15,813 nt of DNA from a virus: the UHGV virus genome UHGV-1805274, one strand, 5' to 3'. The notes under the pieces were generated by a model. The model had not been told where the DNA came from, ran no database searches, and saw only the letters and a list, made by a program, of their open reading frames with translations. Below are positions 1 through 15,813 of the stretch, in pieces. A program made the position numbers and the translations under genes. Position 1 is the stretch's first letter, and each line of letters begins with the position of its first letter.

Positions 1-576
1 CCGCCACCGCTCCTTCACGGCGTTTGCCGCCGCAGTGCCATCTTTTACAGTCTGCCAGACAGAGGACAGCGTATCTCCCAGAGAACCGGTTACAGCAACG
101 GCCTGTGCCGGTACGGCTGCACTGGTGTCTGTCTCTGCGTCCGGGGCTGTATCCTGCAACGACGGATAAACGGTAACGGTGAACGCGTAATAATTCAGTT
201 CATCCGCTTTAGTGCGGCATTCCCATGAATCCACCATGACGTCCACAGTGCCGAAATCAGGATGTACCAGCTCACCGCTACCCGGAGCATCAAGAGCATC
301 CATCAGCGCACCCGCTTCATCTCTGGCTGTTTCTGCGTTGCTGTTCAGAATGCAGGCGCTGAATGTACGGGAGCGAAGCTTTTTCCCCAGGTCATTGACG
401 TCGCCGGTATCACGTAACGGGTACTCGCGTTTAACCAGGCGACGTCCGCCAGCCTGTTTTTGCTCCTCGATGACGAGAAACGACACGTTACGGAACGTGC
501 CTTTGCCGGTTGTTTTCCTGCCTCCACCGGTTTTATCCCGGACAGCATTAACGGCATTTAAAGCATTTTCAAACAT
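1..576 (-). CDS. N: DNA circularization protein N-like (Mu gp43 position), N-terminal 192 codons; gene runs off the left edge of the window
   Basis: ATG at 576..574 lies 4 nt downstream of the tape measure stop (583..581). Frame is open to position 1 ([44 protein letters not shown]...). Absent from the ORF track because there is no stop in the window. Function assigned by position after tape measure as in Mu. Confidence 0.55.
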
Positions 577-580
577 GGTT

Positions 581-2653
581 TTACCAGCCCGTAATGTAGT
601 TATCGCCCGCGTAAATATTCAGCCCCATACCGTCCTCGGTGACGCGGGAACTGGTCAGACGTAACCCCTCGCCAAGTTCGACGCGCAGCGAGGCTTCCGC
701 ATTCACTTTTTGCTCCTGCGGCTCCTTATCCGGGGCCGTCCATTTCTGATACAGGTCGGTTACAAAACCGCCCAGATACTCCCCGGCGACACTGCCCAGC
801 GTGGCACCGGCAACCGTACCCAGCGGTCCGGCAAGGCTGCCAACGGCACCGCCGAGCCATGCACCGGCTGTACTGCCAATTGCGCCTGCTTTTTCATGGG
901 TTGACGCCTGCTCATCCATCAGGACGGGGGCAAGCTGTAGTGCCCCCATTACCGGGCCACCCAGACGTGACAACGCACGACCGGCACCTTTCCCCATCCA
1001 GCCCAGCGCCCCGGCACCTTTCGTCACAACCCGACCGATCACACTGCCTGAAAGTTTGTTTCCGATACCGGAAAACCACCCGCCAACAGCACGCCCGGCA
1101 TCAGCCAGCTTTCCGACCGTTCCCGTAACCAGTTGCCCGGCAGCACTGCCTGCAAGCCTGCTCAGAAGACCGGATTTACCGGGTAAAGGTAATGGTGCAG
1201 GCCGTGCCGTTACCGGTACGCCGGGTGGGGGTAATGCCAGTACAGGGCGTGGTGCAGGTAATGCCAGCGGCTGTGGCCCGGACAGCAATAACGGCTGGCG
1301 GGGTAACAGCGGGGCCATTCTTCCGCCGCTCCGTACGCGACGACCGCCGCCACTCCTGTAGCCACCAAATCCACGGGGCCAGTTGATGACAAACACACGC
1401 TGAATGCCGATACCCTGCAACAGCGTCTCAGACGTCATGGCATCCGGAACCGGCAGACCTGCCTGCCCACGTTTGCGGTTTCGCATCCAGCGCCACATAC
1501 GACGCCCGGTTTTAAACGGATAACTGGCAACCTGCCATGAGGGTTTTGCCACGGCCCAGCCTGCTCTCAGGGCTTTATTGGCAAGCCAGACAGACACCAG
1601 AACAGCAGCCAGTTTTTTCAGGCTGACAATATTCTGGTCAACCCATGCCAGCGCATCTTTACCCGGTTTCAGCCAGCGCCATAATTCCTGCGCCGCGATT
1701 TTTACCGTTCTGAACGTGGTCAGAAATTTCTGACCAATGTTTTCTGCCAGTGCGTCAAGTTCCCCGGATTTATCCGCCATGTCGTGCCAGTTAAGCACCC
1801 GGCGCATCTCGTTCTTGATTTCTTCAAAGGGGCCGCTGTTTGCCACCTTTATGCGAAATTCAAGCAGGTTGGCTTCCATCTGGGCGAACATCCCGTCCCA
1901 GGAGTTCATCGCACTGGCCTGTGCACCTTTTGACTGTTCTGACAGCGTTCTGAATACCGTCAGAATGGATTTCAGGCCCAGCTTGCCTTTTTCACCTTGT
2001 TTGCGGATATCCTTAACGTCTTTACCCAGTGCATCCGCCAGCGTCTGGTAAACGTTAATACCGTAACCGGTCAGCAGGTTGGCATCCGCCGCTGTGATTT
2101 GCTGGCGGGCAAACATCTGTTTCAGTTGCAGTGAGGCACCCTGTGCAGTGGGTAAATCCCAGCCGTGCATGGCCCCCTGATCCTGCAACATGGTGATGAA
2201 CTGTTTCGTCTGTTCATCCGTCATGCCGAAGCCTTTTGACGAACGGATCTCATCCAGAACACCACTCAGCCCCCACGTGGTGTCCTTCGCGTTCTGCTTT
2301 GCCCAGGCCATCATGGCCTGCGCTCTGACCTTATCGCCGTGATACAGCGAGTTCATGGCGATAATCTGTTGCTCACGCTGGGCGGCTGCACCAATAAACA
2401 GTTTATTGGCGGTGTAACCCACGCCAGCGATACCCAGCGCCCCGGCTGACAGCATTCGGAATGTACGGGTTGACAGAGAACCCATTCTGTCAATGGCACC
2501 AGAAACGCGCACAACCTCCATACGCAGGGCACGAAGGGAACTTTGCCCGCTACGGGACAGGGCGTTTATCTGGTTCGAATACTGGCGGGAACGCCGGGAA
2601 AGATTGCCATTAAGATCAATAATGACAGACGCCTTTAAGCGTTTCCCGGTCAT
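581..2653 (-). CDS. Tail tape measure protein (Mu gp42-like), 690 aa
   Basis: Long ORF directly downstream of sheath/tube/chaperone genes. N-terminal helical region, central Pro/Leu/Ala-rich linker and C-terminal glycine-zipper-like Gly/Ala-rich region typical of tape measure proteins. SD AGGAAA 7 nt upstream of the ATG. Confidence 0.85.
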
Positions 2654-2797
2654 AGAGATTTCCTGATTTAACGGTGATATTGAGAGAGGGTTTTAGCCTG
2701 CTGGCAGTGCCGGAAAAAGCGGGACAGCGGGAGAGACAAGGCCCATTCCGGGCCACTTTTCAGAATAACGCCAATCGCTGTCGCCGCTTTCTCAATA

Positions 2798-3232
2798 TCA
2801 TTCCGGCACCGCAGCCACTCGCCCCCGTTCTTGTGTCAGCGATGCTGCCACAGCCATGTCGTACATTTCTGTAGCCAGCGACAGACGCTGGAAGTCATCA
2901 ACAGACAGCTTGCGCATCAGCGCCAGCGATAACGGGCCTTTGATGCAACCCACGCTGGCAATCTGTCGGCGCAGCATTTCCAGTCCCATCCGGGACGGGG
3001 AACTGACCAGCACCGGGCCTTCCTTGCTCATTACCAGCTTTTCAGCAGCCGCCTGGGCATCAATCAGATCGCCTGCGGTCAGTTCACGCAGCGTCACGTC
3101 ATACTGCATTTCAGTCTCGTCACCGGTGCCGAACGGCAGGCCGTCTTTCAGTTTCAGCACGCCGGACTGAATTTCTGCCACAATGCTGTCATGCAGTTCC
3201 TGTGCTTCAGGACCTAAATTCATTTCGTCCAT
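2798..3232 (-). CDS. Tail assembly chaperone-like protein (Mu gp41 position), 144 aa
   Basis: ORF located between tail tube and tape measure genes, the conserved position of tail assembly chaperones (lambda G, P2 E). Acidic protein. Function is positional inference. Confidence 0.6.
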   Translation of the reverse strand: MDEMNLGPEAQELHDSIVAEIQSGVLKLKDGLPFGTGDETEMQYDVTLRELTAGDLIDAQAAAEKLVMSKEGPVLVSSPSRMGLEMLRRQIASVGCIKGPLSLALMRKLSVDDFQRLSLATEMYDMAVAASLTQERGRVAAVPE

Positions 3233-3241
3233 TGTTTCCCC

Positions 3242-3598
3242 TTATGCAATGCGTTTGCTTTGTTTTGCCATCAGTACCAGCGAAATTTCGCCGCCGTCGT
3301 TTTTCGGTTCATCTGCCTGCCAGGCATTCGCCATCATCCAGGTTTCACCGGTGTCTGCCTGAAACTCTGCTGTGATGTTTTCCCAGCCGATGATTTCATC
3401 CAGACCGATATCACCACCGCCCGGAATTTTGCATTCCAGCTTTGCGGCACGTGGTTTACCTTTCCAGCCATAAACCCGCGAGCCGGTCACTTCTTCACGG
3501 GTGATGCCGGAAGGTGTGAAGGAGGCCCCTTCCATCGTTTCAAGCTCCATGCCATTGACACGGATGAACGCCACCCCCTGACGCTGATTTCCAGCCAT
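3242..3598 (-). CDS. M: Tail tube protein (Mu M / gp40-like), 118 aa
   Basis: 118-aa ORF immediately downstream of the sheath gene. Size and position match Mu tail tube protein. Confidence 0.8.
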   Translation of the reverse strand: MAGNQRQGVAFIRVNGMELETMEGASFTPSGITREEVTGSRVYGWKGKPRAAKLECKIPGGGDIGLDEIIGWENITAEFQADTGETWMMANAWQADEPKNDGGEISLVLMAKQSKRIA

Positions 3599-3607
3599 AA
3601 ATGCTCC

Positions 3608-5095
3608 TTACAGAATGAACTGAACTTGTGCCGCGAAAATGCGGAACTGGTTAATCAGATTCGGGCCGCACAGCACATCAAGACGGTCTTTGTCGTCCTT
3701 GTTACGTGCCACATACAGCTCCTCTTTGAACGTGTCGAAATCCTCGACCAGTCCGGCGTTTTCCCATTCTTCAAACAGTGCCAGCAGCTCCGTTTTGATC
3801 ACGGATGGCGTCACCACGGCCTGACCGGTGGCAAAGCGGGTGCCATCACTTGCCAGCTTGTAGTTCGGGAATTTCTGCGTGATGCGGGTTCGCAGCGAAT
3901 AACGCAGATAACTCAGCGTGGCGATGGTATTCACGTTCAGATAAGACGGATCGCTGTCACCGTACTTGTTTGTGCGGTACATCGTGATCATGCGTTCAAT
4001 CTGCATTTCACCACCATCATTCACGTTAAACGTGGAGATGCCGTCAAACAGCAGCGCATTACGTTCTGACCAGGTGAAACGATCCCCCACCGCAGGCGGC
4101 ATTCTTCCGGGCAACGTCAGCGTCTGGAGTGGACGCGCCGGGTCGATGGAAAGCGCCTGGCTGGCAACGGCACACAGGGTGGCGGCGTACAGATATGACG
4201 GTTCCGGTGCACCGGCAATCCCCATACAGGAAATCAGATGGTCATTACGGCTGACACCAAACGTGGAAATATCCCCATACGTGCCGGACAGCACTGTCAC
4301 GGCAAAGCCATCAGCCTGATTGACTGGTCCCCAGCGTTCCTGCAATTCAGTGCGTAACAGATTCAGGTTCGGTTCATCGGTATAGGGCATCACAATATAT
4401 TTGTATTGCAGATCGCCCATTCCCGCGATACTTGCGCTGATATCCGGGTTGCTGTTTTTCCCGGATGCGGCTTTGAATGCCGTGATAATCCCGTAAGGGG
4501 TGGTTTCACCCGCGTAATAGTTCCAGCGCACGTCCACGGCAGATAATGCACCCGTAAATTTTGCACTCAGAACCACATCTGCATGGGTGTCATCATCCCC
4601 GCTGTCTGCGCGAACTTCTGCCGTCACCGGTAAATCAGGCTGGCCTTTGATTCGGGCAACCAGCAGGTCAGCCAGCGCCGCTCCCGTTGCACCTGCTGCG
4701 ACAGATACCGCCAGTCGCTGACCGGCAATGTAAGTCACAAGCGAGCCGTTTTCGCCTGCCGTTCCTGACAGTGAAATTTCACCGCCAGCAGCATTACCGG
4801 TGCCGTTCCCCTGCGGAATACACCACAGCTCCGCCACGCGGTTAGCGTTCAGGAATGCATCTGCCATCAGTGCCAGCATGGAACCCTGACCAAACGCCGC
4901 ACAGGCCTGTGAGCCGGAACGGATACGGACAGGCACGTTTGGTGCCGCACTGGCTTTACTTCCGCTTTGCCCGAACATCAGCACGCGCTGACGGGGTGCC
5001 GGTGTTCCGCTGACGGCATTACTGTTATCAAATTCGATATACGTCAGAGGAACGCGAACATCTGACGGGATCGCGTTAAATGAAATATCGCTCAT
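3608..5095 (-). CDS. L: Contractile tail sheath protein (Mu L / gp39-like), 495 aa
   Basis: 495-aa ORF, same length as Mu sheath protein as I recall it. Precedes tube gene. Start ATG overlaps stop of upstream small gene (ATGA). Confidence 0.88.
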
Positions 5096-5298
5096 TTCGA
5101 TTTACTCCGTTTTTTCGGCGTAGCGTCGGTATCATCCGCCGTGTTTTCAGTGCTCCCGACTTCAACCACATCACCGGCTGCAAGGCGACGTATCCAGAAA
5201 CTGTTACGGGGCTTTTCTTCTCCCTCCGGAGCCAGTAATTTCATCGTGAGCGGGTCACGGATGGCTTTTCCCGCTGCGGGTTTAATTTTCAGCATCAT
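5092..5298 (-). CDS. Small basic phage protein (Mu gp38 position), 68 aa
   Basis: Short ORF with Lys-rich C-terminus, coupled to the sheath gene start by ATGA overlap. Function unknown. Confidence 0.6.
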
Positions 5299-5830
5299 GA
5301 TCCTTTTCCTGATTCACATTGATATGTGCGGCAAATTCCGGGGTTTCGTCCGGGAATTTCCAGGTCTGCCAGTGACGCTCGTAATCATCCAGCGAATCCA
5401 TGTCCACCACGGACGGCAGCGGGGTAGTGCCACTGAACAGAACGCCGTAAAGCACCACACCGGCATTGATACGGTTGTCGTCACAAAGATTTCTGACCTG
5501 CGTCAGTCTCATCCCGGTGGTCGGGCCAAACGTCTGACCGTTAACACCGGCAATCAGTCGCTCCACAATCTGATAAATACCGGGCCGGTTTACCTGTTCC
5601 CCGTTCAGCAACTCCGCCACGACAAAAAATGCCCAGCGACTTTCAACTTCCCGACGCGTACGCCCCTCACCACAGCCCATCCATGCCAGAAATACCGATG
5701 GCGGGGCCAGAAAGAGACGGTGCACATCCTCGTTAGTCCATGTGCCGGTAAGGGGTTCCACCTGCCGCAGGGTTGCCCCAAACAACTCACGAACGCGCGC
5801 CAGCAGTGCGGCTTCGGTTTCTTCCAGCAT
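5282..5830 (-). CDS. Head-tail joining/neck protein (Mu gp37 position), 182 aa
   Basis: ORF in the head-completion gene block between major head and sheath. Start overlaps upstream stop. Function is positional. Confidence 0.65.
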   Translation of the reverse strand: MLEETEAALLARVRELFGATLRQVEPLTGTWTNEDVHRLFLAPPSVFLAWMGCGEGRTRREVESRWAFFVVAELLNGEQVNRPGIYQIVERLIAGVNGQTFGPTTGMRLTQVRNLCDDNRINAGVVLYGVLFSGTTPLPSVVDMDSLDDYERHWQTWKFPDETPEFAAHINVNQEKDHDAEN

Positions 5831-6255
5831 CAGATAAACCCCTTCTGTTTTCGTGAGAAGACCGGCGCGTCAGACTGCACCTGCACAAGGTTTTCACCAT
5901 CCGGCGAGGCTGCCGTCCTGCTTTCCACGCCGGGATCTGTTTTGCCATCGCGCACCTGTTCCAGCCAGCGCACAGTGTCCCTGTAGGCAGCGGTGATCTG
6001 CTCGGTGGGTTGTGATTCATTCAGATAAAACCAGGCCACCACGCAACACTGCCGTTTCAGCAGTGAGGGGACGACGGTAAGCGGCAGAACAAAGCGCGCG
6101 GCGAGATAGCCATCAATAAAGGCCGAGGCATCTGCCAGTGCCTGTTCTGCCACGGCATCATCCGGCTGCCCGTCCGCTGTTTTAGGGCGGGTGAGAATAT
6201 CCAGCCGCGTACGTGTATAGCGGGCGCACAAGTCATTTACCGTCGCGTAATTCAT
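5830..6255 (-). CDS. Head completion/neck protein (Mu gp36 position), 141 aa
   Basis: ORF coupled by ATGA overlap to upstream gene (stop 6252..6254, start 6255). Function is positional. Confidence 0.65.
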   Translation of the reverse strand: MNYATVNDLCARYTRTRLDILTRPKTADGQPDDAVAEQALADASAFIDGYLAARFVLPLTVVPSLLKRQCCVVAWFYLNESQPTEQITAAYRDTVRWLEQVRDGKTDPGVESRTAASPDGENLVQVQSDAPVFSRKQKGFI

Positions 6256-6662
6256 GCATCCGCCTCAGCCAGCGCCGCTTTGATTTGCGCACTGCTCACC
6301 GGTTCCCCCAGCGCCGCACTGACGGCTTTCACTTTGGGTTCTCCCCCTGCGGTAAAGTGCTCCGGATTTGCCTTATCCAGACCGGCAACGGTCGCACGGA
6401 TACGGGTATTCAGATCGCCCACACCCAGAACGTCCAGCCCCCCAGCCTCAGCGAGCGTTTCTGCTGCCGTTGTCGATACAACAGACAGCACGCTGTCGGC
6501 ACGGATAATCGCCAGTTGTTCTTCGGTGACTTCCACGGTGTTTTCGCCACGTGTAAAGGCGATTCCGGCGCGGCGGTAGACCGGACGAAGGCATTTAATA
6601 ATCGCCGTGCAAGTGATGCGAGAAGTGTCCAGCCATTGTGAATTAAGCGAAGTGCCTGACAT
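6252..6662 (-). CDS. Phage head-associated protein (Mu gp35 position), 136 aa
   Basis: ORF with strong SD (AAGGAGGA) upstream of the ATG at 6662. Directly downstream of major head gene and its terminator hairpin. Confidence 0.65.
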   Translation of the reverse strand: MSGTSLNSQWLDTSRITCTAIIKCLRPVYRRAGIAFTRGENTVEVTEEQLAIIRADSVLSVVSTTAAETLAEAGGLDVLGVGDLNTRIRATVAGLDKANPEHFTAGGEPKVKAVSAALGEPVSSAQIKAALAEADA

Positions 6663-6696
6663 AACACATGCTCCTCCTTTTCCTTTAAATCAGGTT

Positions 6697-6720
6697 AAAA
6701 GGCGGTCTGAACCGCCTTTT
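6697..6720 (-). terminator. Rho-independent terminator/attenuator hairpin immediately downstream of the major head gene
   Basis: Perfect inverted repeat AAAAGGCGG-(TCTGAA loop)-CCGCCTTTT on plus strand 6697..6720. On the transcribed minus strand it reads as a GC-rich stem followed by TTTTAACCTGATTT, 9 nt after the T stop codon (6731..6729). Its A/T flanks on both sides make it potentially bidirectional. Confidence 0.55.
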
Positions 6721-6728
6721 AATGACGG

Positions 6729-7646
6729 TTACAGGTAGTCAGCGACAACCAGTTGCAGCTTGCCCTTCATCTCGTTGGAGACGGTGGTATTGCCATCCGC
6801 GAACAGTTCACGGTTAAGCAGTTGCTCTGCGGCTTTTTCCAGCCCGACCGGTACAACGATATGCGTCGGCTTCAGGCCCAGTTTCTTACCGCCATCACCT
6901 TCAAAAGAGCGCATCAGTTGCCAGCCCTTCCAGAGGTTATCCAGCGTCAGATCGCCTTTTACCGCGACAGCCATCTGCCAGAAGCCGTAACCGGCAGCAC
7001 GCCGGGCGCTGGCACCAAACAGGAACTCGTTATCCATAAAAACGTGGTCGTCATCGATACGGGTACGTGCGACCAGTTCCGGTTTGCGGCGCTCCTGGAA
7101 AATCAGCGGTTTGACTGCGCGGGAGCAGTCCAGCAGATAGAATGGCAGACCGCTGAAGCTGTCCTGCTCAACGATGTTGGAGGTATTAACCGCGCTGCCC
7201 GTGCCATCCACAGTCGGATATACCGGATGCTCCTTGTCGAAGAAGTTCTGACCGTCATAGCAGGGCTGGGTAAAGCCATCTTTCAGAAGTTTAAAAATCA
7301 GCTCATCCGGCTGAACTGCCGCAGAACGGCCCATCTCCTGAAAAATCGGCGCATAAATACCCAGATTGTCATCCTCGAAGTCATCACGGGAAATACCCAC
7401 GGTGCCTTCAAACGTTTTATTGGCGATGGAGTAGCCATGCGCTTCCATTTGCTGAATGGTTCGCTTACCCACCCATTCTTTCAGGGTCGGGAATTTACCC
7501 AGCCAGCCATAGGTATTACTGCGGGTGGAAGAGTTCACCACCATTGCAATTTTGTTGTACTGCGACGTGGCGTCTTCAAGACCGCCCTGAAAATCCTTAC
7601 GCCAGGAGGTCATCAGGGCTTTAATGGATGCCGGGGTGACAATCAT
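6729..7646 (-). CDS. T: Major head (capsid) subunit (Mu T / gp34-like), 305 aa
   Basis: 305-aa ORF following the protease/scaffold gene. SD CAGGAAC 7 nt upstream. ATGA overlap with the I stop. Followed by terminator hairpin as is common for major capsid genes. Confidence 0.88.
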   Translation of the reverse strand: MIVTPASIKALMTSWRKDFQGGLEDATSQYNKIAMVVNSSTRSNTYGWLGKFPTLKEWVGKRTIQQMEAHGYSIANKTFEGTVGISRDDFEDDNLGIYAPIFQEMGRSAAVQPDELIFKLLKDGFTQPCYDGQNFFDKEHPVYPTVDGTGSAVNTSNIVEQDSFSGLPFYLLDCSRAVKPLIFQERRKPELVARTRIDDDHVFMDNEFLFGASARRAAGYGFWQMAVAVKGDLTLDNLWKGWQLMRSFEGDGGKKLGLKPTHIVVPVGLEKAAEQLLNRELFADGNTTVSNEMKGKLQLVVADYL

Positions 7647-8194
7647 TTTTCTTGTTCCTGTTTCATTTTCAGATACTCAGCCTCAGTAATGCCGAGCGCC
7701 TTCACTGCTGCCTGTTCATCAGCAGACAGCACCGCCACCTCCGGTTTTTCCTGCGACGGGATTTTCGCTGTGGTGGTCTGCATGGCAGATAACGCAGCGA
7801 TGGGCTGTTTTTTCTCAAGCTGTGCCGACAGTGCCGCCACGCCAATCTGACCGCCAAGCTGTTCCAGATAGGTACGTTCGCTTTTGAAAATGCGGCCTTC
7901 CTGTTCCGCCTTGTCCAGAACGGCGCTCAGGCTGGCTGTGGCGCTTTGTGCAGTCGCCTGTGCCAGTTCATCACGCAGGGCGTTGTAGCTTTCCACAGGG
8001 ACGTATTTCGTCAGGTCAACGGCGGCTTTCTGTGCCTTTTCCAGTTCGGCGGATAACGACGCCACTTTTCCGGCATCTGTTTCGAGCGCATCAAGCGCAC
8101 TCAGGGCCGCGCTGGCCTGTTCATCGGTGATGTCTGCATTTTCGGGGACAGTCACCCCAAGACGCGCAAGCAGCTTGCGCAGCGTTTCATTCAT
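7643..8194 (-). CDS. Z: Putative nested scaffold protein (Mu Z-like) from in-frame internal start within I, about 183 aa
   Basis: Internal in-frame ATG at 8194..8192 (MNETLRKLLARL...) is preceded by SD AGGAG with a 9-nt spacer. Mu is known to express a scaffold (Z) from within I. Exact internal start is not verified. Confidence 0.35.
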   Translation of the reverse strand: MNETLRKLLARLGVTVPENADITDEQASAALSALDALETDAGKVASLSAELEKAQKAAVDLTKYVPVESYNALRDELAQATAQSATASLSAVLDKAEQEGRIFKSERTYLEQLGGQIGVAALSAQLEKKQPIAALSAMQTTTAKIPSQEKPEVAVLSADEQAAVKALGITEAEYLKMKQEQEK

Positions 8195-8728
8195 GGGTTT
8201 GTTCTCCTGTTGAAGGATGTCGGGAAGGTCTGCCGCCAGTGCGGTCAGCTTTTTCATGCCGGTGGCACCGGGGTCATTGGTCAGCGCAGCAAGGCGGATT
8301 TGCAGCACTGCACCGGTGGCGGTGTCATACGGAAAAACCGCAGAGAGATAACCAAATTCGCCGTCATCGATGCGCTGCTGGGCCGCCGCCGTCCAGCGTG
8401 GGTGGATAAATAACCCTTCACCTTCACGCCACTGCATTTCATCGGCGTTAAACCAGCCAGCCGCGACGAGTTGTTCCGGGGGTAATCCTTTGTCCTTACG
8501 TAGCTGGTTATGCTCGTAATCAATCAGCACGTCCTGGTTGAGCGCGCGAACGCCTTCAACCAGACGCCCGGCAATCTCACCGTCGATGAACCACCCCTGA
8601 CCACCTGTCACATCAAACGGGCGACCATCACGGGCACTGAAATGACCGGCAGGCAATAGCTGGCACCAGCCGTCATCGTCAATGGACAGCGCATTCAGTG
8701 CGGCAATGCCAATCGCGTGTTTTTTCAT
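7643..8728 (-). CDS. I: Head maturation protease/scaffold protein (Mu I / gp32-like), 361 aa
   Basis: 361-aa ORF between G and T with Ala/Glu/Lys-rich helical C-terminal half typical of scaffold domains. Preceded by 196-bp non-coding gap. Confidence 0.82.
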   Translation of the reverse strand: MKKHAIGIAALNALSIDDDGWCQLLPAGHFSARDGRPFDVTGGQGWFIDGEIAGRLVEGVRALNQDVLIDYEHNQLRKDKGLPPEQLVAAGWFNADEMQWREGEGLFIHPRWTAAAQQRIDDGEFGYLSAVFPYDTATGAVLQIRLAALTNDPGATGMKKLTALAADLPDILQQENKPMNETLRKLLARLGVTVPENADITDEQASAALSALDALETDAGKVASLSAELEKAQKAAVDLTKYVPVESYNALRDELAQATAQSATASLSAVLDKAEQEGRIFKSERTYLEQLGGQIGVAALSAQLEKKQPIAALSAMQTTTAKIPSQEKPEVAVLSADEQAAVKALGITEAEYLKMKQEQEK

Positions 8729-8924
8729 GTCCTGCTGCTCATCATGGTTTGTGAGCAGTCAGTTTGCGGGAGGTGCGGGAAAATCTGGGGTTATGCTATT
8801 TGAGTAATGGAGAAAGAAAGTGAAAGGAAGATAAAACGGGATTCATACACCGTTAAATACCGGTTTAAAAATCCCGTGGCGCGTTTTAAAAAATCTGTGC
8901 GGCTGATTTCATGTCTGATTCTGT
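8729..8924 (-). promoter_or_regulatory. Non-coding intergenic region upstream of I; candidate C-dependent late promoter (Mu P_I equivalent)
   Basis: The only large non-coding gap (196 bp) in an otherwise tightly packed operon. It sits exactly where Mu carries late promoter P_I. Contains A/T tracts (GATTTTTTAAAAC and GATTTTTAAAC on minus strand) and a pyrimidine-rich tract. No operator or -10/-35 could be confidently assigned. Confidence 0.4.
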
Positions 8925-9395
8925 TTATTGCCTCAGAGCGGCGCTGACGCGTTTTCTGATGGCATCAAAAATTTCCTGTTCCCCGGTCTTATCCAGCCCC
9001 ATATAAGGACGCGCAGGAACGCCTGCCGGGCGGGGTGCCATATCGGGTGTACCGCCCCACTGATGAATGGCAGCATAAATTTTTGGCGAACCAATCAGGG
9101 CATAATCCTGTCCATAATCGGTGGTAATGCTGCGTGCCAGATCGCCATGCAGGGTAAGAATACTGCCCGGAACAAAACCATGATCCTGACGCCATGCCTG
9201 CCACGAATCGCTCCACGCTTCCCAGCCTTTCCCTGTATCCGGGTCTGCCTGCCGTTCAAATGCCTGTTCCGTGGATGACAGCAGCGCCGCAGCCATCACA
9301 CGGGGAATGGCGCGGTCACGTGTAACGGTTCCCAGTTCATCCAGTGCAAGCTGAATACGTCGCACATCCACGGCAACGTTCATATCAAGACTCAC
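8925..9395 (-). CDS. G: Virion morphogenesis protein G (Mu gp31-like), 156 aa
   Basis: ORF starting at GTG 9395 with strong SD GGAGGTG 5 nt upstream. GTGA overlap with F stop. Size matches Mu G. Confidence 0.78.
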   Translation of the reverse strand: MSLDMNVAVDVRRIQLALDELGTVTRDRAIPRVMAAALLSSTEQAFERQADPDTGKGWEAWSDSWQAWRQDHGFVPGSILTLHGDLARSITTDYGQDYALIGSPKIYAAIHQWGGTPDMAPRPAGVPARPYMGLDKTGEQEIFDAIRKRVSAALRQ

Positions 9396-10711
9396 TTATT
9401 CACCTCCACATGCCCCTCCAGTACGTCAATCATCCCGTCAGCAATCGCGGCTTCAAGCGACTGTGCAGATACGCGGCTGATACTGACCAGCACATCCGCA
9501 CGGTCATTCTGTCTGCCGACTGTCTGTGATGTTCTGACCACAATCCGGGCCATGCCGTCACGGGTTGCCACGACATACAGCAACTGGTGGTTCTCCCTGT
9601 CCCACAATACCGCCTGTGGTTTTGCCATCAGCGACGGCAGACGCTGTAAATCCTCCGGTTTCAGGGCGGCATCAGAAGTGGTCGCCAGACTTTTCCCGTT
9701 CATCACAAGCAGACGGGCTGGCATATTCCCGGTGCGCTGATATACGGCCTCCGCCACGGATCCCGTCATAAAACCCAGCGCACGGACCTCATGTCCTGCC
9801 CGGCGTGATTTCGCCAGACGTTTAAGCCAGAGGGAAAAAGCAAGCTGACGCTCCCGGCTGTTATTCAGCGTCTGAACAACCTGCTCACGCAGCTGCGCGT
9901 CACGAACTTCCACCAGTTTTCGAATCAGTGCCTGATCCGTACCAAATGCCGCCGAACCGGGGTTATATGACCAGCCCACATCTGGCGTCATTTTTACCCG
10001 ACCGTTGTCAAACGTGGTTGACGATGTGCGGAAAATCTCTCCGGTGCTTTCATCCGTACCGGCATCCACTTCGCGGGTATTCATGAATGACGCACCATAA
10101 CTGACCTGTAGCCCCAGTTCTTTCATGCGGGCCGCAGACAGCGCCCGGACGCGACAGCGGCAGTTCCAGCCATTGGGCGGGTAATGCGTCTGCCAGAAAA
10201 TGTCGTCATACTGGAAAACCATATTGTGCAGCCGCGCATGTTCCGGGCGTGTTCTGCCATCCATAACGGCAACGTACTGCCAGTACGGGTACAAATCGGC
10301 GGTATTCATCATCTGCGCATAACGTCCTGCCCCATACGCCGTACGGGTATTGACGTTATAAATGGTTGCCAGACGACGCGGACTACCCAGCTCGATTACC
10401 TTCGCGTTTCCCTCTGCATCCACGATGATTTGTTTTCCCCACCATCCGAGTTTTTGCAGCCGGGGGGCCAGTGTGCGGGTAAATTCCTCACGGGTGATGC
10501 CTTCACTGACAGCCCGCTCCACTTCCTCACGGATTGTGGTCAGGACATCCATCCGGGTGGCTTTGGCAACGGTAAAGGCGCGGGCGTGCGCGTCTGCCAG
10601 TTGTTCGTACCAGTTCCAGGTGATGTTGTAGCCTTTGGCGCGGAAATACGCGACAGCCTCCTTTGGCGGGAGGCGTGCGGCATACGCCAGATCAATGGTC
10701 TGCTGCGGCAT
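9392..10711 (-). CDS. F: Minor head/virion morphogenesis protein F (MuF family, Mu gp30-like)
   Basis: ORF containing the MuF-family motif (...HYPPNGWNCRCRVRAL...). Start placed at ATG 10711 (MPQQTIDL...) with GGGGG SD. Track ORF extends to GTG 10747; either start overlaps the portal stop at 10692..10694. Confidence 0.8.
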   Translation of the reverse strand: MPQQTIDLAYAARLPPKEAVAYFRAKGYNITWNWYEQLADAHARAFTVAKATRMDVLTTIREEVERAVSEGITREEFTRTLAPRLQKLGWWGKQIIVDAEGNAKVIELGSPRRLATIYNVNTRTAYGAGRYAQMMNTADLYPYWQYVAVMDGRTRPEHARLHNMVFQYDDIFWQTHYPPNGWNCRCRVRALSAARMKELGLQVSYGASFMNTREVDAGTDESTGEIFRTSSTTFDNGRVKMTPDVGWSYNPGSAAFGTDQALIRKLVEVRDAQLREQVVQTLNNSRERQLAFSLWLKRLAKSRRAGHEVRALGFMTGSVAEAVYQRTGNMPARLLVMNGKSLATTSDAALKPEDLQRLPSLMAKPQAVLWDRENHQLLYVVATRDGMARIVVRTSQTVGRQNDRADVLVSISRVSAQSLEAAIADGMIDVLEGHVEVNK

Positions 10712-12230
10712 CCAGACGCCCCCATATATCGGCAACAAAAATGGCACGGGTCAGCATGTCGATAAGTTCTGCATCATCCATCTGCGGATATAATGAAGCG
10801 GCTTTGTTCATGGCGGCTTCCGGGCCATCTTTCAGCACAGAAAAAATGACGGGTTTCAGCAGGGGGTCAACCGAACGCTGCCAGTCTTCCGGTGAGACGC
10901 CCATCCGGTCGATATCATCCTCCTGCGGGATATCTTCAGCGGATAATGCGGCCTCTTTCTGCGAACCGTTATCCGGGACAACCGGTTGTATAGTAAACAC
11001 GGCTTCATCACCGACCGGCTGTGGAATATGAAGTTTTTCCTGTATCCAGGAGACCGGAATACGCATTCCCGCCGCCAGTTTCGGAATGGCGTCAGACAGT
11101 GCCGTAATATCACCCGCTTCACTGGTATCAAATACAATGCCCGGCAGGCGGTTAATATCAATGGTGCTGTCACTGTTCAGTGCCAGCAGGGGATAAATCA
11201 GGTCACGGTTAATACTGCGGGCAAGCTGGCCCACATCCGCATTACGGATTTCCCGGCGAACCTCATCATGCACTTCACCCAGCGACCGCGCACCTTTATC
11301 GCCAGCCTCTGTGGTCAGGGTGCCGCCCAGAATGGCTTTTGAAATCGCTTTTTCTGCCCAGCCAATCATCGCCATAAAAGGGTCTGACTGACCATCTGCG
11401 GCGCTCTGAAAATCCAGCGTCATCCCCATCGGAATAATGCCACCGGCACGTCGCCCGATATCCATCACGGCCTGCATCAGCGTGGCTTTCTCGCGGTTCG
11501 TTGAGCCGGTCGGATATTTACCGACGCGCATGGGGAGTCCGTAAATTTCCAGAAACTCTGCAAAATCACGCACGGAATAGTTTTTAAAAATAAAAGGCCA
11601 GATAAGCGTGCGCACAAGGCCATTGGTGCCGACATACCCGGTGCGGGATTTGGCCCGGTGCATAAACCAGCCGAACGGTTGCAGCTCCAGCCCGTGATAA
11701 GACGCATCACGCAGGCGTAATTCGTTCAGATTGTCGGGGTTCGCGCAGAACAGCGCCGGATCGCGATGATGCAGCGCCACCGGCACGCGCATTTTCCCCA
11801 GCCAGCCCCATTCAATCTCCTGCATGGAATAGCCCTTGAGAATGGCATCACCGGCATCAAACAGGGCATCTTCAAACCACGCCGCATCATGCAGATATTC
11901 ATTCAGCATGTCGGCGTCTTTTTTCTCCTGTGCGCTGGCATCACGTGCCGGAGCGATGCGCCATTCCAGCGCCTGAATGGCAAGGCGGCGTTTGCTCAGT
12001 TCGGAAAAAAGGTGGGTGTCCTTTTCTTCCATATCAAAGGCCAGGTCAGCCTGTGCTGTCAGATCACCGCGTTCGGCATCACGCAGCATCTGCGCGGCCC
12101 GGTTCGGCGTCACACCACTGGAAGGATGCTCCTGCGTACGCTTCATGACCATTGCCAGCTCATCGCTGCGGGTCTGCATTTCATCGTCAAAATCAAACGG
12201 CTGCCCGGAAATATCCAGAATACGGCCCAT
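10692..12230 (-). CDS. H: Portal protein (Mu H / gp29-like), 512 aa
   Basis: 512-aa ORF immediately downstream of large terminase with TAATG stop/start overlap. SD GAGGGGG upstream. Acidic C-terminus typical of portals. Confidence 0.88.
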   Translation of the reverse strand: MGRILDISGQPFDFDDEMQTRSDELAMVMKRTQEHPSSGVTPNRAAQMLRDAERGDLTAQADLAFDMEEKDTHLFSELSKRRLAIQALEWRIAPARDASAQEKKDADMLNEYLHDAAWFEDALFDAGDAILKGYSMQEIEWGWLGKMRVPVALHHRDPALFCANPDNLNELRLRDASYHGLELQPFGWFMHRAKSRTGYVGTNGLVRTLIWPFIFKNYSVRDFAEFLEIYGLPMRVGKYPTGSTNREKATLMQAVMDIGRRAGGIIPMGMTLDFQSAADGQSDPFMAMIGWAEKAISKAILGGTLTTEAGDKGARSLGEVHDEVRREIRNADVGQLARSINRDLIYPLLALNSDSTIDINRLPGIVFDTSEAGDITALSDAIPKLAAGMRIPVSWIQEKLHIPQPVGDEAVFTIQPVVPDNGSQKEAALSAEDIPQEDDIDRMGVSPEDWQRSVDPLLKPVIFSVLKDGPEAAMNKAASLYPQMDDAELIDMLTRAIFVADIWGRLDAAADH

Positions 12231-13885
12231 TACCAGCCCCCTCGTTCAAACTGGTGATAATCATCAAAATCATCGTTATCAACACCATCACCACGGTGGC
12301 GTGGTGGCAGCGCCTGTATGCTGTCCTCGTCGATAACAAAACCATTCATATAAGACGCCCTGACAGCCATACAGAGCGCCACGGCAAAGTCGCCATGTCG
12401 TCGGCCTTTACCGCCTTCGTCTTTTGTGCGCCCCTTATCAATCTGCGGAATACCTTTGTCCACCTTGATGTGGAGCAGGTCATCAAGTGTGGTCTGGTGC
12501 CGGGCAATCGTGATGTTCTGCGCTTCAAACTCGCCTTTCAGTTTCGGCATCCACTCCTGATACCAGGATGCGGTCAGATTCACACAGTCGATCATCTCCG
12601 GGCCATAAATCAGACGGGCGGCTTCTGCCAGATAACCGCCGTTACCGGTGGCATCAAATGCAGCGCCGGTAAAACGGGGCAAACGGGACAGAATGAATAA
12701 AAGGATTTGTCGCTGCTGGTCATAGGTCACATTACGCAGCTCCACGCGGAAACATTCGTGTTTGCGTAAGTCAGGAGTGATGGCAAGCGGCACAAACACC
12801 GTCAGGTCGCCACGGCGTGCAAAGTCTTCGCCCAGTACGTGTTTATTGAGCGGCGACAGCGCATCGAGCAACGGGAGCAGCTCCTGTTCACACCAGTCCT
12901 GAACGATGCCGTGGCGCATTTGTGGTGTCAGCGATTCAAAATCGTCCGGGGCTTCAAAACGCAGAATCGGGATATCCCGCGCTGGCGTCATGGCGGCTTC
13001 AATCAGCACGCGTGACAGATAAGCGCCCCCGGATTTTTTAGGAATGCAGCCGTATTCCTCGTCGGCACTCTCTTTATTCGGCGCATTCCGGTACAGGCCA
13101 TCACGCCAGGCTTTTTCCGCTTCCGGCGACCACGACTGATTCGTGACGTAACAGATACGCCGGTACAGTCCGTCAGCGATGGCATCATCCAGCGTGATGC
13201 GGTGAACGCTGTAATCCTTGCGCCCCTCGCGCGCATCCTGAATGTACTGGTTAAACAGGTTATCGACGCCGTTATGTGTCGATATGATCCGCACGCGGGC
13301 ACCCCACATGGTGAGCGCAAAAGCCGCTTTCAGGAGTTCGTCCAGGGCTTCATGAAATGCCGCCTCATCAATCACCACGTCCCCCTGCAAACCACGCAGG
13401 TTAGACGGACGGCTTGACAGCGCCTGCACCTTAAATCCGCTGTTCGGAAAGCGGATCATGTAGGTGAGGATTTCTTCTTTTTTGTCGCTGTCCCAGAAGG
13501 TCTGCTCCCATACGTCAGCCTTTGCCAGCTGGTTAAAGGCGCGGGCAAACAGGGCACAGGCGGCAATGTATTCCAGCGCCATTTCCTGACGAGAACCCAC
13601 ATAAAAGACGTTGCGACCACCGCGACGCCTCGGCTTTGCGGCCGTCATGACATTGCGGCCCGCTTCGGCCCATGTCAGACCGGTACGACGGGATTTTTCA
13701 GCGATGCAAATCTGGCTTTCATCCTCAAACCAGCGGCGCTGATAGCCCAGAAAAACCGGTTCATTGCGGGGCTGTGCTTCCCCGATATCGGTCACGATAT
13801 TCACGCCGAGCAGTCCGGCTTCCTCACGCAGGTTGATTTTGCGGGGGGCATGAAGGGCTTTAAGGTTGTTTTCTCTGGTGTTCAT
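12230..13885 (-). CDS. Terminase large subunit (Mu gp28-like), about 551 aa
   Basis: Long ORF between small terminase and portal. Start placed at ATG 13885 (MNTRENN...), 7 nt after the small terminase stop, with GAGAGGG upstream. Track ORF begins at 13972 but that extension overlaps the small terminase gene. Confidence 0.85.
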   Translation of the reverse strand: MNTRENNLKALHAPRKINLREEAGLLGVNIVTDIGEAQPRNEPVFLGYQRRWFEDESQICIAEKSRRTGLTWAEAGRNVMTAAKPRRRGGRNVFYVGSRQEMALEYIAACALFARAFNQLAKADVWEQTFWDSDKKEEILTYMIRFPNSGFKVQALSSRPSNLRGLQGDVVIDEAAFHEALDELLKAAFALTMWGARVRIISTHNGVDNLFNQYIQDAREGRKDYSVHRITLDDAIADGLYRRICYVTNQSWSPEAEKAWRDGLYRNAPNKESADEEYGCIPKKSGGAYLSRVLIEAAMTPARDIPILRFEAPDDFESLTPQMRHGIVQDWCEQELLPLLDALSPLNKHVLGEDFARRGDLTVFVPLAITPDLRKHECFRVELRNVTYDQQRQILLFILSRLPRFTGAAFDATGNGGYLAEAARLIYGPEMIDCVNLTASWYQEWMPKLKGEFEAQNITIARHQTTLDDLLHIKVDKGIPQIDKGRTKDEGGKGRRHGDFAVALCMAVRASYMNGFVIDEDSIQALPPRHRGDGVDNDDFDDYHQFERGGW

Positions 13886-13892
13886 AACCCTC

Positions 13893-14468
13893 TCATGCCT
13901 TACCCAGCAGTACATCACGGATACGCTGCTCCAGCTCTTCGCTGATGCCATCCTGCCCGCGCAGTTCTTCACTCACGGCGTTTGCCGCTTCTTCTGCGAA
14001 TGCCTGGCGGATTTCTTTCTCGCGCCGGTGGCTGGACATTGCCGTGGATTCCAGACGCTGTGCCGCCAGCATGGCATTTTTCAGCAGGTCAATATCCACG
14101 TCAGATTCCGGGTTTTCGATTTGCCGCATCATGGCCTTAAAAAGCTGGCTGCGGGCCATTTCCAGAATCAGCTTTGTGGTTTCTCCCATTGGCTTGTCGC
14201 CAAGTTCTGCGGTCAGTGCTGACGTCATTTCACGCATCTGTCGCAGGTTATGGCCTACCTGCTCGACGTTCGTCGCGTAACGGTTCAGACCGGAACGGGA
14301 GAGTTTCATCTCATCCGGCAGGCCAGCGTCTTCAATCAGTACGTTAATTTCTTCCAGAATGCGGGCCTGTGGGATCGCTTTATCACGCAGCATTTCATGC
14401 AGCGTTTTACGTACGTTTTCCGGCAGTAAATCCACTTTTGAAGCCCGGCCCCGTGTTTTCCTGTCCAT
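13893..14468 (-). CDS. Terminase small subunit-like protein (Mu gp27 position), about 191 aa
   Basis: ORF directly upstream of large terminase. Start placed at ATG 14468 (MDRKTRGRASKV...), preceded by SD AGGAGG with 4-nt spacer. Track start 14483 lacks an SD. Basic N-terminus consistent with DNA binding. Confidence 0.65.
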   Translation of the reverse strand: MDRKTRGRASKVDLLPENVRKTLHEMLRDKAIPQARILEEINVLIEDAGLPDEMKLSRSGLNRYATNVEQVGHNLRQMREMTSALTAELGDKPMGETTKLILEMARSQLFKAMMRQIENPESDVDIDLLKNAMLAAQRLESTAMSSHRREKEIRQAFAEEAANAVSEELRGQDGISEELEQRIRDVLLGKA

Positions 14469-14479
14469 CACGCCTCCTG

Positions 14480-14770
14480 TCATGCACGGGGACGAGGACG
14501 CTTGACACCGGCAACGCGGGCACGACCTTCTGCCACATCCTGACCTCGGGAGGTCAGCGTTACGACATAAAAGCCGCGCAGGTTTTCCACGGTGACCAGT
14601 TGCTGCTCTGCCAGCCAGTCAATCTGGCCGCGAACCACATCGCGGGAAACGTTGTGTCCGTATGCATCCAGACAGTCCTGAAGGATGGATTCGTTTGCTT
14701 CGTTATTGCAGTCCATCAGGGAACGCAGGATGACCAGACGACGGTCTTCGGTCAGAATATCGTTAATCAT
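14480..14770 (-). CDS. Small phage protein (Mu gp26 position), 96 aa; possible DNA-binding fold
   Basis: ORF with SD GGAG 6 nt upstream. ATGA overlap with upstream gene stop. Basic Arg/Pro-rich C-terminal tail. Function unknown. Confidence 0.6.
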   Translation of the reverse strand: MINDILTEDRRLVILRSLMDCNNEANESILQDCLDAYGHNVSRDVVRGQIDWLAEQQLVTVENLRGFYVVTLTSRGQDVAEGRARVAGVKRPRPRA

Positions 14771-15066
14771 GAATTACTCCGGTTTACTGCGTTTTCAAGC
14801 AGCAGCTCCAGTTGATGGGAAAATGACTGCACCCGCTGGGACAGCACCCGGATATCGCCGGACAGCTCTGCAATTCGCAGGCGCATTTCGTGTACATCTT
14901 CTGTGCCAGGGATGCTGGCGTAGCGGGTTTCCATTTCGGTCATCCGGTTTTCAAGACGCTCCACACGCTCAGTGCTGGCAAAACTACGACGCATTGCCCA
15001 GACGGCCCCACCGGCCACAACAGGCAACAGGTAAGGCCATAACGCTAAAACTGAAATCAAATCCAT
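14767..15066 (-). CDS. Membrane-anchored coiled-coil protein (Mu gp25 position; possibly the lysis 'releasin'), about 99 aa
   Basis: N-terminal hydrophobic segment (LISVLALWPYLLPVVAGGAVWA) followed by charged helical region. Start ATG 15066 with SD GGAG, overlapping the zinc-finger gene stop (TAATG). Track start at 15084 is a GTG without SD. Confidence 0.6.
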   Translation of the reverse strand: MDLISVLALWPYLLPVVAGGAVWAMRRSFASTERVERLENRMTEMETRYASIPGTEDVHEMRLRIAELSGDIRVLSQRVQSFSHQLELLLENAVNRSNS

Positions 15067-15260
15067 TATTCTGCTCCACGGCACCAGTGGCAGTAGTTCG
15101 CCATCGGCTGCTGTCTCAGCACATCAGGCCGCAGCTCACGACCGCAACCGGCACACAATACAGGCGGGTCATACGCCGCCGGGCGGGGAATATCACGGGT
15201 ATCCCCCTGCCAGAGTTCAGCGAGCAGCAGCGCCACCGCCCGGTTCTGGTCTTCGTTCAT
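15066..15260 (-). CDS. TraR/DksA-family C4 zinc-finger protein, 64 aa
   Basis: Motif CAGC-x17-CHWC (CxxC-x17-CxxC), the spacing of TraR/DksA C4 zinc fingers. Acidic N-terminus (MNEDQN...). SD AAGGAAAG upstream of the ATG at 15260. Confidence 0.7.
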   Translation of the reverse strand: MNEDQNRAVALLLAELWQGDTRDIPRPAAYDPPVLCAGCGRELRPDVLRQQPMANYCHWCRGAE

Positions 15261-15573
15261 AAATTTCTTTCCTTCGGGTCTCCTGTTCCCGGACTGATGC
15301 CTTGTCGCGGTTGCACTGCCCGAGCGCCATCAACAGGTCAGCATTCCAGAGAAGGGATGCTCCCCACGTCAGGGGCTGTGGCATGGGCGGAACGGGCGTT
15401 GCTTCCGTCAGTTCTGCATCAGTTTCGGGCAGGATCACCACCGATGGCACGGGTGCGTTTTTCGAGTTCCCGCAACCTGTCAGCAGCAACGGCAGGCACA
15501 GGACGAGTGCTGCAATTGTCACCGGTAATGGCGGTTGTAATTTTTTGTTTTGCATCATGATGTTCTGTCTCAT
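15217..15573 (-). CDS. Outer-membrane lipoprotein, probable o-spanin (Rz1-like)
   Basis: Signal peptide with lipobox LLLTGC (MRQNIMMQNKKLQPPLPVTIAALVLCLPLLLTGCGNS...). Pro-rich mature region with a single later Cys. Starts inside and extends beyond the overlapping Rz-like frame. Start uncertain (15573 or 15558), weak SD. The track extension to 15741 runs into the palindrome and is not credible. Confidence 0.6.
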   Translation of the reverse strand: MRQNIMMQNKKLQPPLPVTIAALVLCLPLLLTGCGNSKNAPVPSVVILPETDAELTEATPVPPMPQPLTWGASLLWNADLLMALGQCNRDKASVREQETRRKEIYERRPEPGGGAAAR

Positions 15574-15716
15574 CTGCCAGCCGCGCGGCACGATTTGCGG
15601 CACGGATAGCGGAAAATACCTGCATCGTCTGTTCCTGACCGTGTAACAACCATTCAGCCGTGTTGCGGGCCTGTTGCTCCGTCTGTAATTCACGGCGCAG
15701 CGTCTGGTTATCGTGG
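15419..15716 (-). CDS. Probable i-spanin (Rz-like) C-terminal part; 5' end lost in or beyond the terminal palindrome
   Basis: Frame open from at least 15716 to stop at 15419, encoding a charged coiled-coil-like sequence (...QTLRRELQTEQQARNTAEWLLHGQEQT...AADRLRELEKRTRAI...). Overlaps the lipoprotein gene in another frame. N-terminal TMD not visible. Confidence 0.45.
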
Positions 15717-15813
15717 CGGGGGGGGGGCCGCCCCCCGCCACGATAGCCAGGCGCTGCGCCGGGAATTACAGACGGAGCAACAGGCCCGCAACACGGCTGA
15801 ATGGTTGTTACAC
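15641..15813. repeat. 173-bp near-perfect palindrome (inverted duplication) with G10/C6 centre at the window edge; probably an assembly/sequencing artefact
   Basis: 15763..15813 is the exact reverse complement of 15641..15691. Inner arms pair with four mismatches (15692/15762, 15703/15751, 15708/15746, 15724/15730), each with G on the plus strand at the right-arm position. G10 run at 15718..15727. Confidence 0.9.

Follow-up and report, generated by a model that had tools for sequence, protein, structure and literature searches.

The palindrome at the right end of the window (the whole stretch of DNA analysed, 15,813 nt) is very probably a technical artefact that lies outside the phage or prophage genome. 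An earlier, sequence-only reading of this DNA had described it as a fold-back artefact that makes the right edge untrustworthy. This is supported by the collinearity of relatives with the window up to position 15720, by errors confined to one arm of the palindrome, and by junk at the left end of the contig. The same reading spoke of an assembly artefact. The artefact part of that claim holds, but its source is most likely a chimeric read or a read join that the assembler retained, and less probably an error of the assembler's own, since poly-G alone gives a correct de Bruijn graph no way to turn round.

The terminal palindrome and the relatives of the window

An inverted-repeat search placed the arms at 15641-15726 and 15728-15813 (86 nt each, 95% complementary, with one nucleotide, G15727, between them). 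The runner-up inverted repeat in the 15.8-kb window is only 20 nt long, and the predicted single-stranded DNA fold of the 173-nt stretch reaches -117 kcal/mol against -34 +/- 3 for shuffled sequences (z = -25). The terminal palindrome therefore lies far beyond what chance would produce. Direct comparison confirmed three earlier statements about its arms. The final 51 nt (15763-15813) pair with 15641-15691 without any mismatch, the arms differ at exactly four pairs of positions (15692/15762, 15703/15751, 15708/15746 and 15724/15730), and G is the + strand base of the right arm in all four.

All database matches to the window stop at one base, 15720. They come from 14 records of Mu-like phages and from the Mu-like prophages of 41-44 E. 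coli chromosomes, and these are collinear with the window over 11-15720 only. Past this point the aligned references carry TGCTGTCCAGCC..., the N-terminus of the i-spanin gp23, followed by the SAR endolysin and then the C/Mor activator gene. Comparison with the homologous Mu region, in which lys should follow, had been proposed as a check; the relatives indeed carry the rest of the i-spanin and the endolysin there, and no inverted copy. At the junction three aligned references read ...GTGGCGGG|TGCTGTCCAGCCTGTGCCAC..., while the window reads ...GTGGCGGG|GGGGGGGCCGCCC|CCCGCCACGAT....

When 15734-15813 was queried alone, it matched positions 1575219-1575298 of E. coli WS1933D on the + strand (96.3% identity). 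In the main match to the same record, window position 15720 corresponds to base 1575219 on the - strand. Both arms are thus the same 80 WS1933D bases on opposite strands. Because homology to relatives ends at 15720, the templated mirror is 80 nt long (15641-15720 against 15734-15813), and the two copies are separated by 13 untemplated bases (15721-15733, GGGGGGGCCGCCC). This centre consists of G and C only and has no database match; all aligned references have TGCTGTCCAGCCT at the same place. The left arm (15641-15720) is authentic: it is Mu-like and belongs to the - strand i-spanin (gp23) gene. The right arm (15734-15813) is a spurious reverse-complement copy of the left arm. One of the four mismatches, 15724/15730, falls within the untemplated centre and not within the templated mirror. 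The G10 run that the sequence-only reading placed at the centre is present (15718-15727), but only its first three G are authentic, as homology stops at 15720.

The end segment is therefore the reverse complement of the adjoining authentic segment (same reference bases, opposite strand), as in a hairpin chimera, and the junction is absent from close relatives and from contig collections. The fold-back was found in none of the more than 55 relatives compared, and the junction string had 0 matches in three public sets (viral, metagenome and GTDB genome contig collections). These absences also speak against a genuine inverted duplication (fold-back inversion), which would have formed through hairpin capping of a broken end, or through template switching, at the native sequence GTGGC-N18-GCCAC, either in a Mu-like prophage that is defective or in phage DNA that was packaged or replicating. 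A native 5-bp inverted repeat (GTGGC ... GCCAC, 18-nt spacer) does lie exactly at the turn-around, and entries in the reference list of PMC4787754 point to such events in E. coli nuclease mutants. However, an inverted duplication should keep the native 18-nt spacer (GGGTGCTGTCCAGCCTGT), and the window has 19 nt instead (G10-CC-G-C6, GGGGGGGGGGCCGCCCCCC; 9/18 identical). The differences between the arms are also confined to one arm and are all to G, and the sequence stops exactly at the palindrome. In wild-type E. coli a near-perfect palindrome of 173 bp can be cleaved by SbcCD, which further argues against such a duplication. With the native spacer not retained and the fold-back in no relative, a genuine inverted duplication is very improbable, in agreement with the earlier opinion. 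The same low probability applies to the palindrome as a real molecule, that is, a snap-back or inverted-duplication derivative broken in the i-spanin gene at GTGGC-N18-GCCAC, with the G/C centre as a base-calling failure at a tight loop. If true, this would be a snapshot of the processing of hairpin-capped breaks in a natural E. coli population.

The native GTGGC-N18-GCCAC (2414-2441 of locus L001; window 15713 onward) is located exactly at the contig break, directly after GGCGGG. Snap-back of single strands or sequencing dephasing might be favoured there, but this would leave the G/C-only centre unexplained. A model in which the centre represents the native loop was unconvincing: identity is 9/18, or 13/18 if a 'green channel lost' recoding is allowed (compared by hand, chance ~0.05), and the length is off by one.

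Direction of the errors at both contig ends

Two independent references, the prophage of E. coli WS1933D and the phage vB_YpM_5, match the left arm at 100% identity, so all three templated differences sit in the right-arm copy. Read in the outward (+) direction, these miscalls are A>G at 15746, A>G at 15751 and T>G at 15762. The chance of three out of three templated substitutions being to G is 0.037. The right end also has seven untemplated G following the last true base. Had an old palindrome diverged naturally, differences would be expected in both arms, and without a favoured product base.

At the left end all matches begin at window position 11, and positions 1-23 appear to be low-quality bases that were left untrimmed. 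Bases 1-10 (CCGCCACCGC) had no match in any relative. Differences unique to the window are found at positions 14 and 23, and these are the only mismatches to the closest relative, JNEC-KY180, over 11-400. On the outward (-) strand the window reads ...GTGAAGGAGCGGTGGCGG and the relatives read ...GTGATGGAAGCTGTAACCGG. This difference can be described as an indel, T>G, two A>G changes, possibly C>G, and two calls that repeat the preceding A. When both contig ends are pooled, at least 7 of 9 substitutions are to G (P ~0.008), with the caveat that only three of the substitutions to G are unambiguous and that 3-4 left-end ones depend on an alignment which requires an indel. The left end contains junk but no fold-back. 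Both ends of the window have the appearance of 3' read tails of low quality that escaped trimming, which suggests that the window is a whole contig with low depth at its ends. The left edge is as untrustworthy as the right edge.

In two-colour Illumina instruments the lack of light is called as G, which results in poly-G tails (NextSeq, NovaSeq) and in T/C-to-G errors late in reads (fastp, PMC6129281). The window resembles this pattern in its seven extra G, in templated copy errors that all go from non-G to G, and in the likewise biased other end. The copy errors are the signature of dark-cycle calls in two-colour chemistry, and we infer that a platform of this type was used. Poly-G or no-signal miscalls of the two-colour kind had been proposed from the sequence before; the G bias (3/3 templated changes) bears this out. 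Poly-G alone as the cause of the turn-around does not stand. A typical poly-G tail lasts until the read ends, whereas here a short G run is followed by a C run and then by readable sequence, so poly-G alone is no explanation of the mirror. The same candidate was rejected by reasoning on the graph: G^k and C^k form one node, but a change of orientation requires a read with a G-to-C transition.

Sequence-specific Illumina errors triggered by GGC and by inverted repeats have also been described, and such miscalls may repeat the preceding base (Nakamura et al. 2011, PMC3141275). At both ends of the window errors begin at most 10 nt downstream of GGC (GGCGGG|T on the right, GGCGGCAA|C on the left), and several of the miscalls repeat the preceding base as in that study. 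However, 17-21% of all window positions have GGC within 10 nt upstream, so the association at both ends is not significant and is no more than compatible with errors of this kind.

Origin of the fold-back

In the proposed mechanism the contig would be an assembly, probably of low coverage, of a common E. coli Mu-like prophage, with real sequence ending at 15720. At least one read-like sequence would have followed the + strand to ...GTGGCGGG, continued through 13 G/C-only calls, and then returned along the reverse complement of the stretch just read. Such a read would be a fold-back ('hairpin') chimera, with sporadic no-signal G miscalls, presumably of the two-colour type, in its second half. 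In the assembly graph it would probably create an erroneous de Bruijn edge through which a correct edge is joined to its reverse complement. Having entered this erroneous edge, the assembler would stop on re-entering k-mers already used, which would leave a contig end with a perfect 51-nt mirror. Some read-like sequence would have to hold the G-to-C turn, since no path through a bidirected de Bruijn graph can reverse within a G homopolymer.

Comparable 'double-strand hairpin' edges, in which an erroneous stretch links a correct edge to its own reverse complement and leaves the contig with a palindromic end, are found in RNA-seq and MDA data (rnaSPAdes, PMC6736328). Here 15692-15762 would be the erroneous edge, linking the 51-mer 15641-15691 to 15763-15813. 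The window differs from the rnaSPAdes description in the 13 untemplated G/C calls at its turn-around, which that paper does not describe. Errors should rise toward the 3' end of a read, yet the final 51 nt are perfect; merging with true k-mers would fit this. The 51-nt perfect mirror is consistent with an assembler k-mer of 51, but this is not a default of common metagenome assemblers.

The chimera itself could have had two sources. One would be a physical library molecule, formed by snap-back and fill-in or by a polymerase strand switch. The other would be an in-silico, head-to-tail join of two mates from a short fragment ending at or near 15720, in which the arms are read 1 and read 2 and read 2 was not reverse-complemented. 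This might happen, for example, when archive 'spots' are exported unsplit, or in a faulty joining or gap-closing step. The G/C centre would then be junk at the end of read 1, such as past-insert read-through with little or no signal. A mate join would be one form of the artefact and offers no biological alternative to it, and it is possible but rather unlikely. The mirror axis falls within the untemplated calls, suggesting that the junk itself was mirrored or abutted, and the second half, taken in its own 5'->3' direction, carries all of the errors, which suits a lower-quality read 2. The 13-nt centre also fits the start of the TruSeq adapter (AGATCGGAAGAGC) with signal loss at 12/13 positions, a weak agreement obtained by hand that is not significant (chance ~0.11); the Nextera adapter, also compared by hand, fits worse. 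On the other hand, every read pair would give a join of this kind, so most contig ends in the assembly should be affected, and the left end of this contig is free of it.

The symmetric untemplated centre (G7 against CCGCCC) is the single feature that neither the library molecule nor the mate join explains cleanly. Neither snap-back at the native sequence nor a poly-G tail alone accounts for it.

The interrupted lysis cassette and the usable sequence

The window is a Muvirus late region with genes on the - strand, and it extends from the DNA-circularisation protein gene (gp43) on the left to the lysis cassette on the right. Its identity is 99.3% to Yersinia phage vB_YpM_5, 99.2% to the E. coli WS1933D prophage, and 98.2% to phage Mu. 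Gene positions in the window were obtained by transfer of the Mu annotation (AF083977), and for the i-spanin the WS1933D annotation was also used. The phages vB_YpM_5 and vB_YpM_6, both isolated on Yersinia pestis EV76, are 99.2-99.3% identical to the window and are about as close to it as the nearest E. coli prophage, WS1933D. This near-identity of Yersinia phages and an E. coli prophage indicates that the same Muvirus lineage circulates across these records. The tape-measure protein is identical to one present in hundreds of E. coli assemblies (listed in 284 blocks).

The gene content also bears on a second biological reading, in which the palindrome marks the end of a linear replicon (N15-type), either a hairpin telomere that is covalently closed or a snap-back terminus, and was sequenced round the hairpin. 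Sequencing round such an end does give a contig that finishes in a palindrome. However, the window is a Muvirus at 98-99% identity that contains only Mu late and morphogenesis genes and no protelomerase, its 'end' lies inside an i-spanin gene that is continuous in every relative, and G/C junk takes the place of a conserved telomere-resolution site at the centre. The ends of the Mu genome are flanks of host DNA and not hairpins. The sequence-only reading had thought a hairpin telomere unlikely, and the Mu-only gene content together with the collinearity of relatives through the site makes it extraordinarily so.

The inverted repeats of Mu are the ~34-bp gix sites, which flank the ~3-kb invertible G-segment of the tail-fibre region, and the ends of Mu are attL and attR. 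An origin of the palindrome from gix was rejected, as the window spans gp23-gp43 and falls short of the tail-fibre/Gin region, which in loci L007-L014 is found several kb beyond the tape-measure gene. A rearrangement of the Mu ends was also rejected, as the junction is G/C only.

By transfer of the Mu annotation, the palindrome is positioned in the 5' part of gene 23 (i-spanin), and the gp25 releasin gene is further left. The authentic 3' part of the i-spanin gene occupies 15419-15720 on the - strand, and its translation is exactly residues 30-128 (followed by the stop) of the 128-aa Mu gp23. The left arm thus codes sensibly and the right arm does not, as had been noticed earlier. The first 29 residues, membrane anchor included, are swapped by the fold-back for the nonsense sequence 'VTTIQPCCGPVAPSVIPGAAPGYRGGGRPPP'. 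A lysis gene that is perfectly conserved in all other respects thus loses its membrane anchor to the fold-back, which was counted in favour of an artefact.

The embedded o-spanin gene (Mu gene 55, Rz1/LysC-like; 15217-15558, - strand; locus 1918-2259 in the Mu annotation) is intact. The PGAP annotation has only a 73-aa LysC here (locus 1918-2139), and the Mu record has 113 aa. In the o-spanin frame there is also a mechanical ORF of 174 aa (15217-15741, - strand) that starts at a GTG inside the artefact, and the part of it beyond the true o-spanin start is spurious. Searches for the chimeric partial i-spanin product and for the 174-aa chimeric ORF found neither on record. Compared with the Mu lysis cassette (gp22 SAR endolysin, gp23 i-spanin, gene 55 o-spanin, gp25 releasin; AF083977), the authentic sequence beneath the palindrome and leftward of it is 98.9-100% identical. 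Because its contig ends in the artefact, the window lacks the first 29 gp23 codons and all that lies upstream (endolysin, C/Mor).

Only 24-15720 should be trusted; if 11-15720 is used instead, positions 14 and 23 call for caution. Before annotation or comparison, 93 bases should be trimmed at the right end and 10-23 bases at the left end, and the gene 23 i-spanin should be annotated as 5'-partial, with 29 codons lost to the artefact. Untrimmed ends would propagate a false 'terminal inverted repeat', a chimeric 130-aa i-spanin fragment and the spurious 174-aa ORF, which a gene caller could report as a novel protein. Other contigs can be screened for a terminal mirror with a G/C-only centre in which all differences are in the outer copy and are to G in the outward direction. 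The significance of the palindrome is a matter of data hygiene only, and it supports no biological conclusion on Mu-like phages.

A 20-nt inverted repeat is also found within the gp30 (Mu F-like) gene. Its arms (9528-9547 and 10530-10549) are complementary at 19/20 positions and 982 nt apart, and the estimated chance expectation is ~0.01 per window. One arm of this repeat is exactly conserved in 7/8 E. coli prophage loci.
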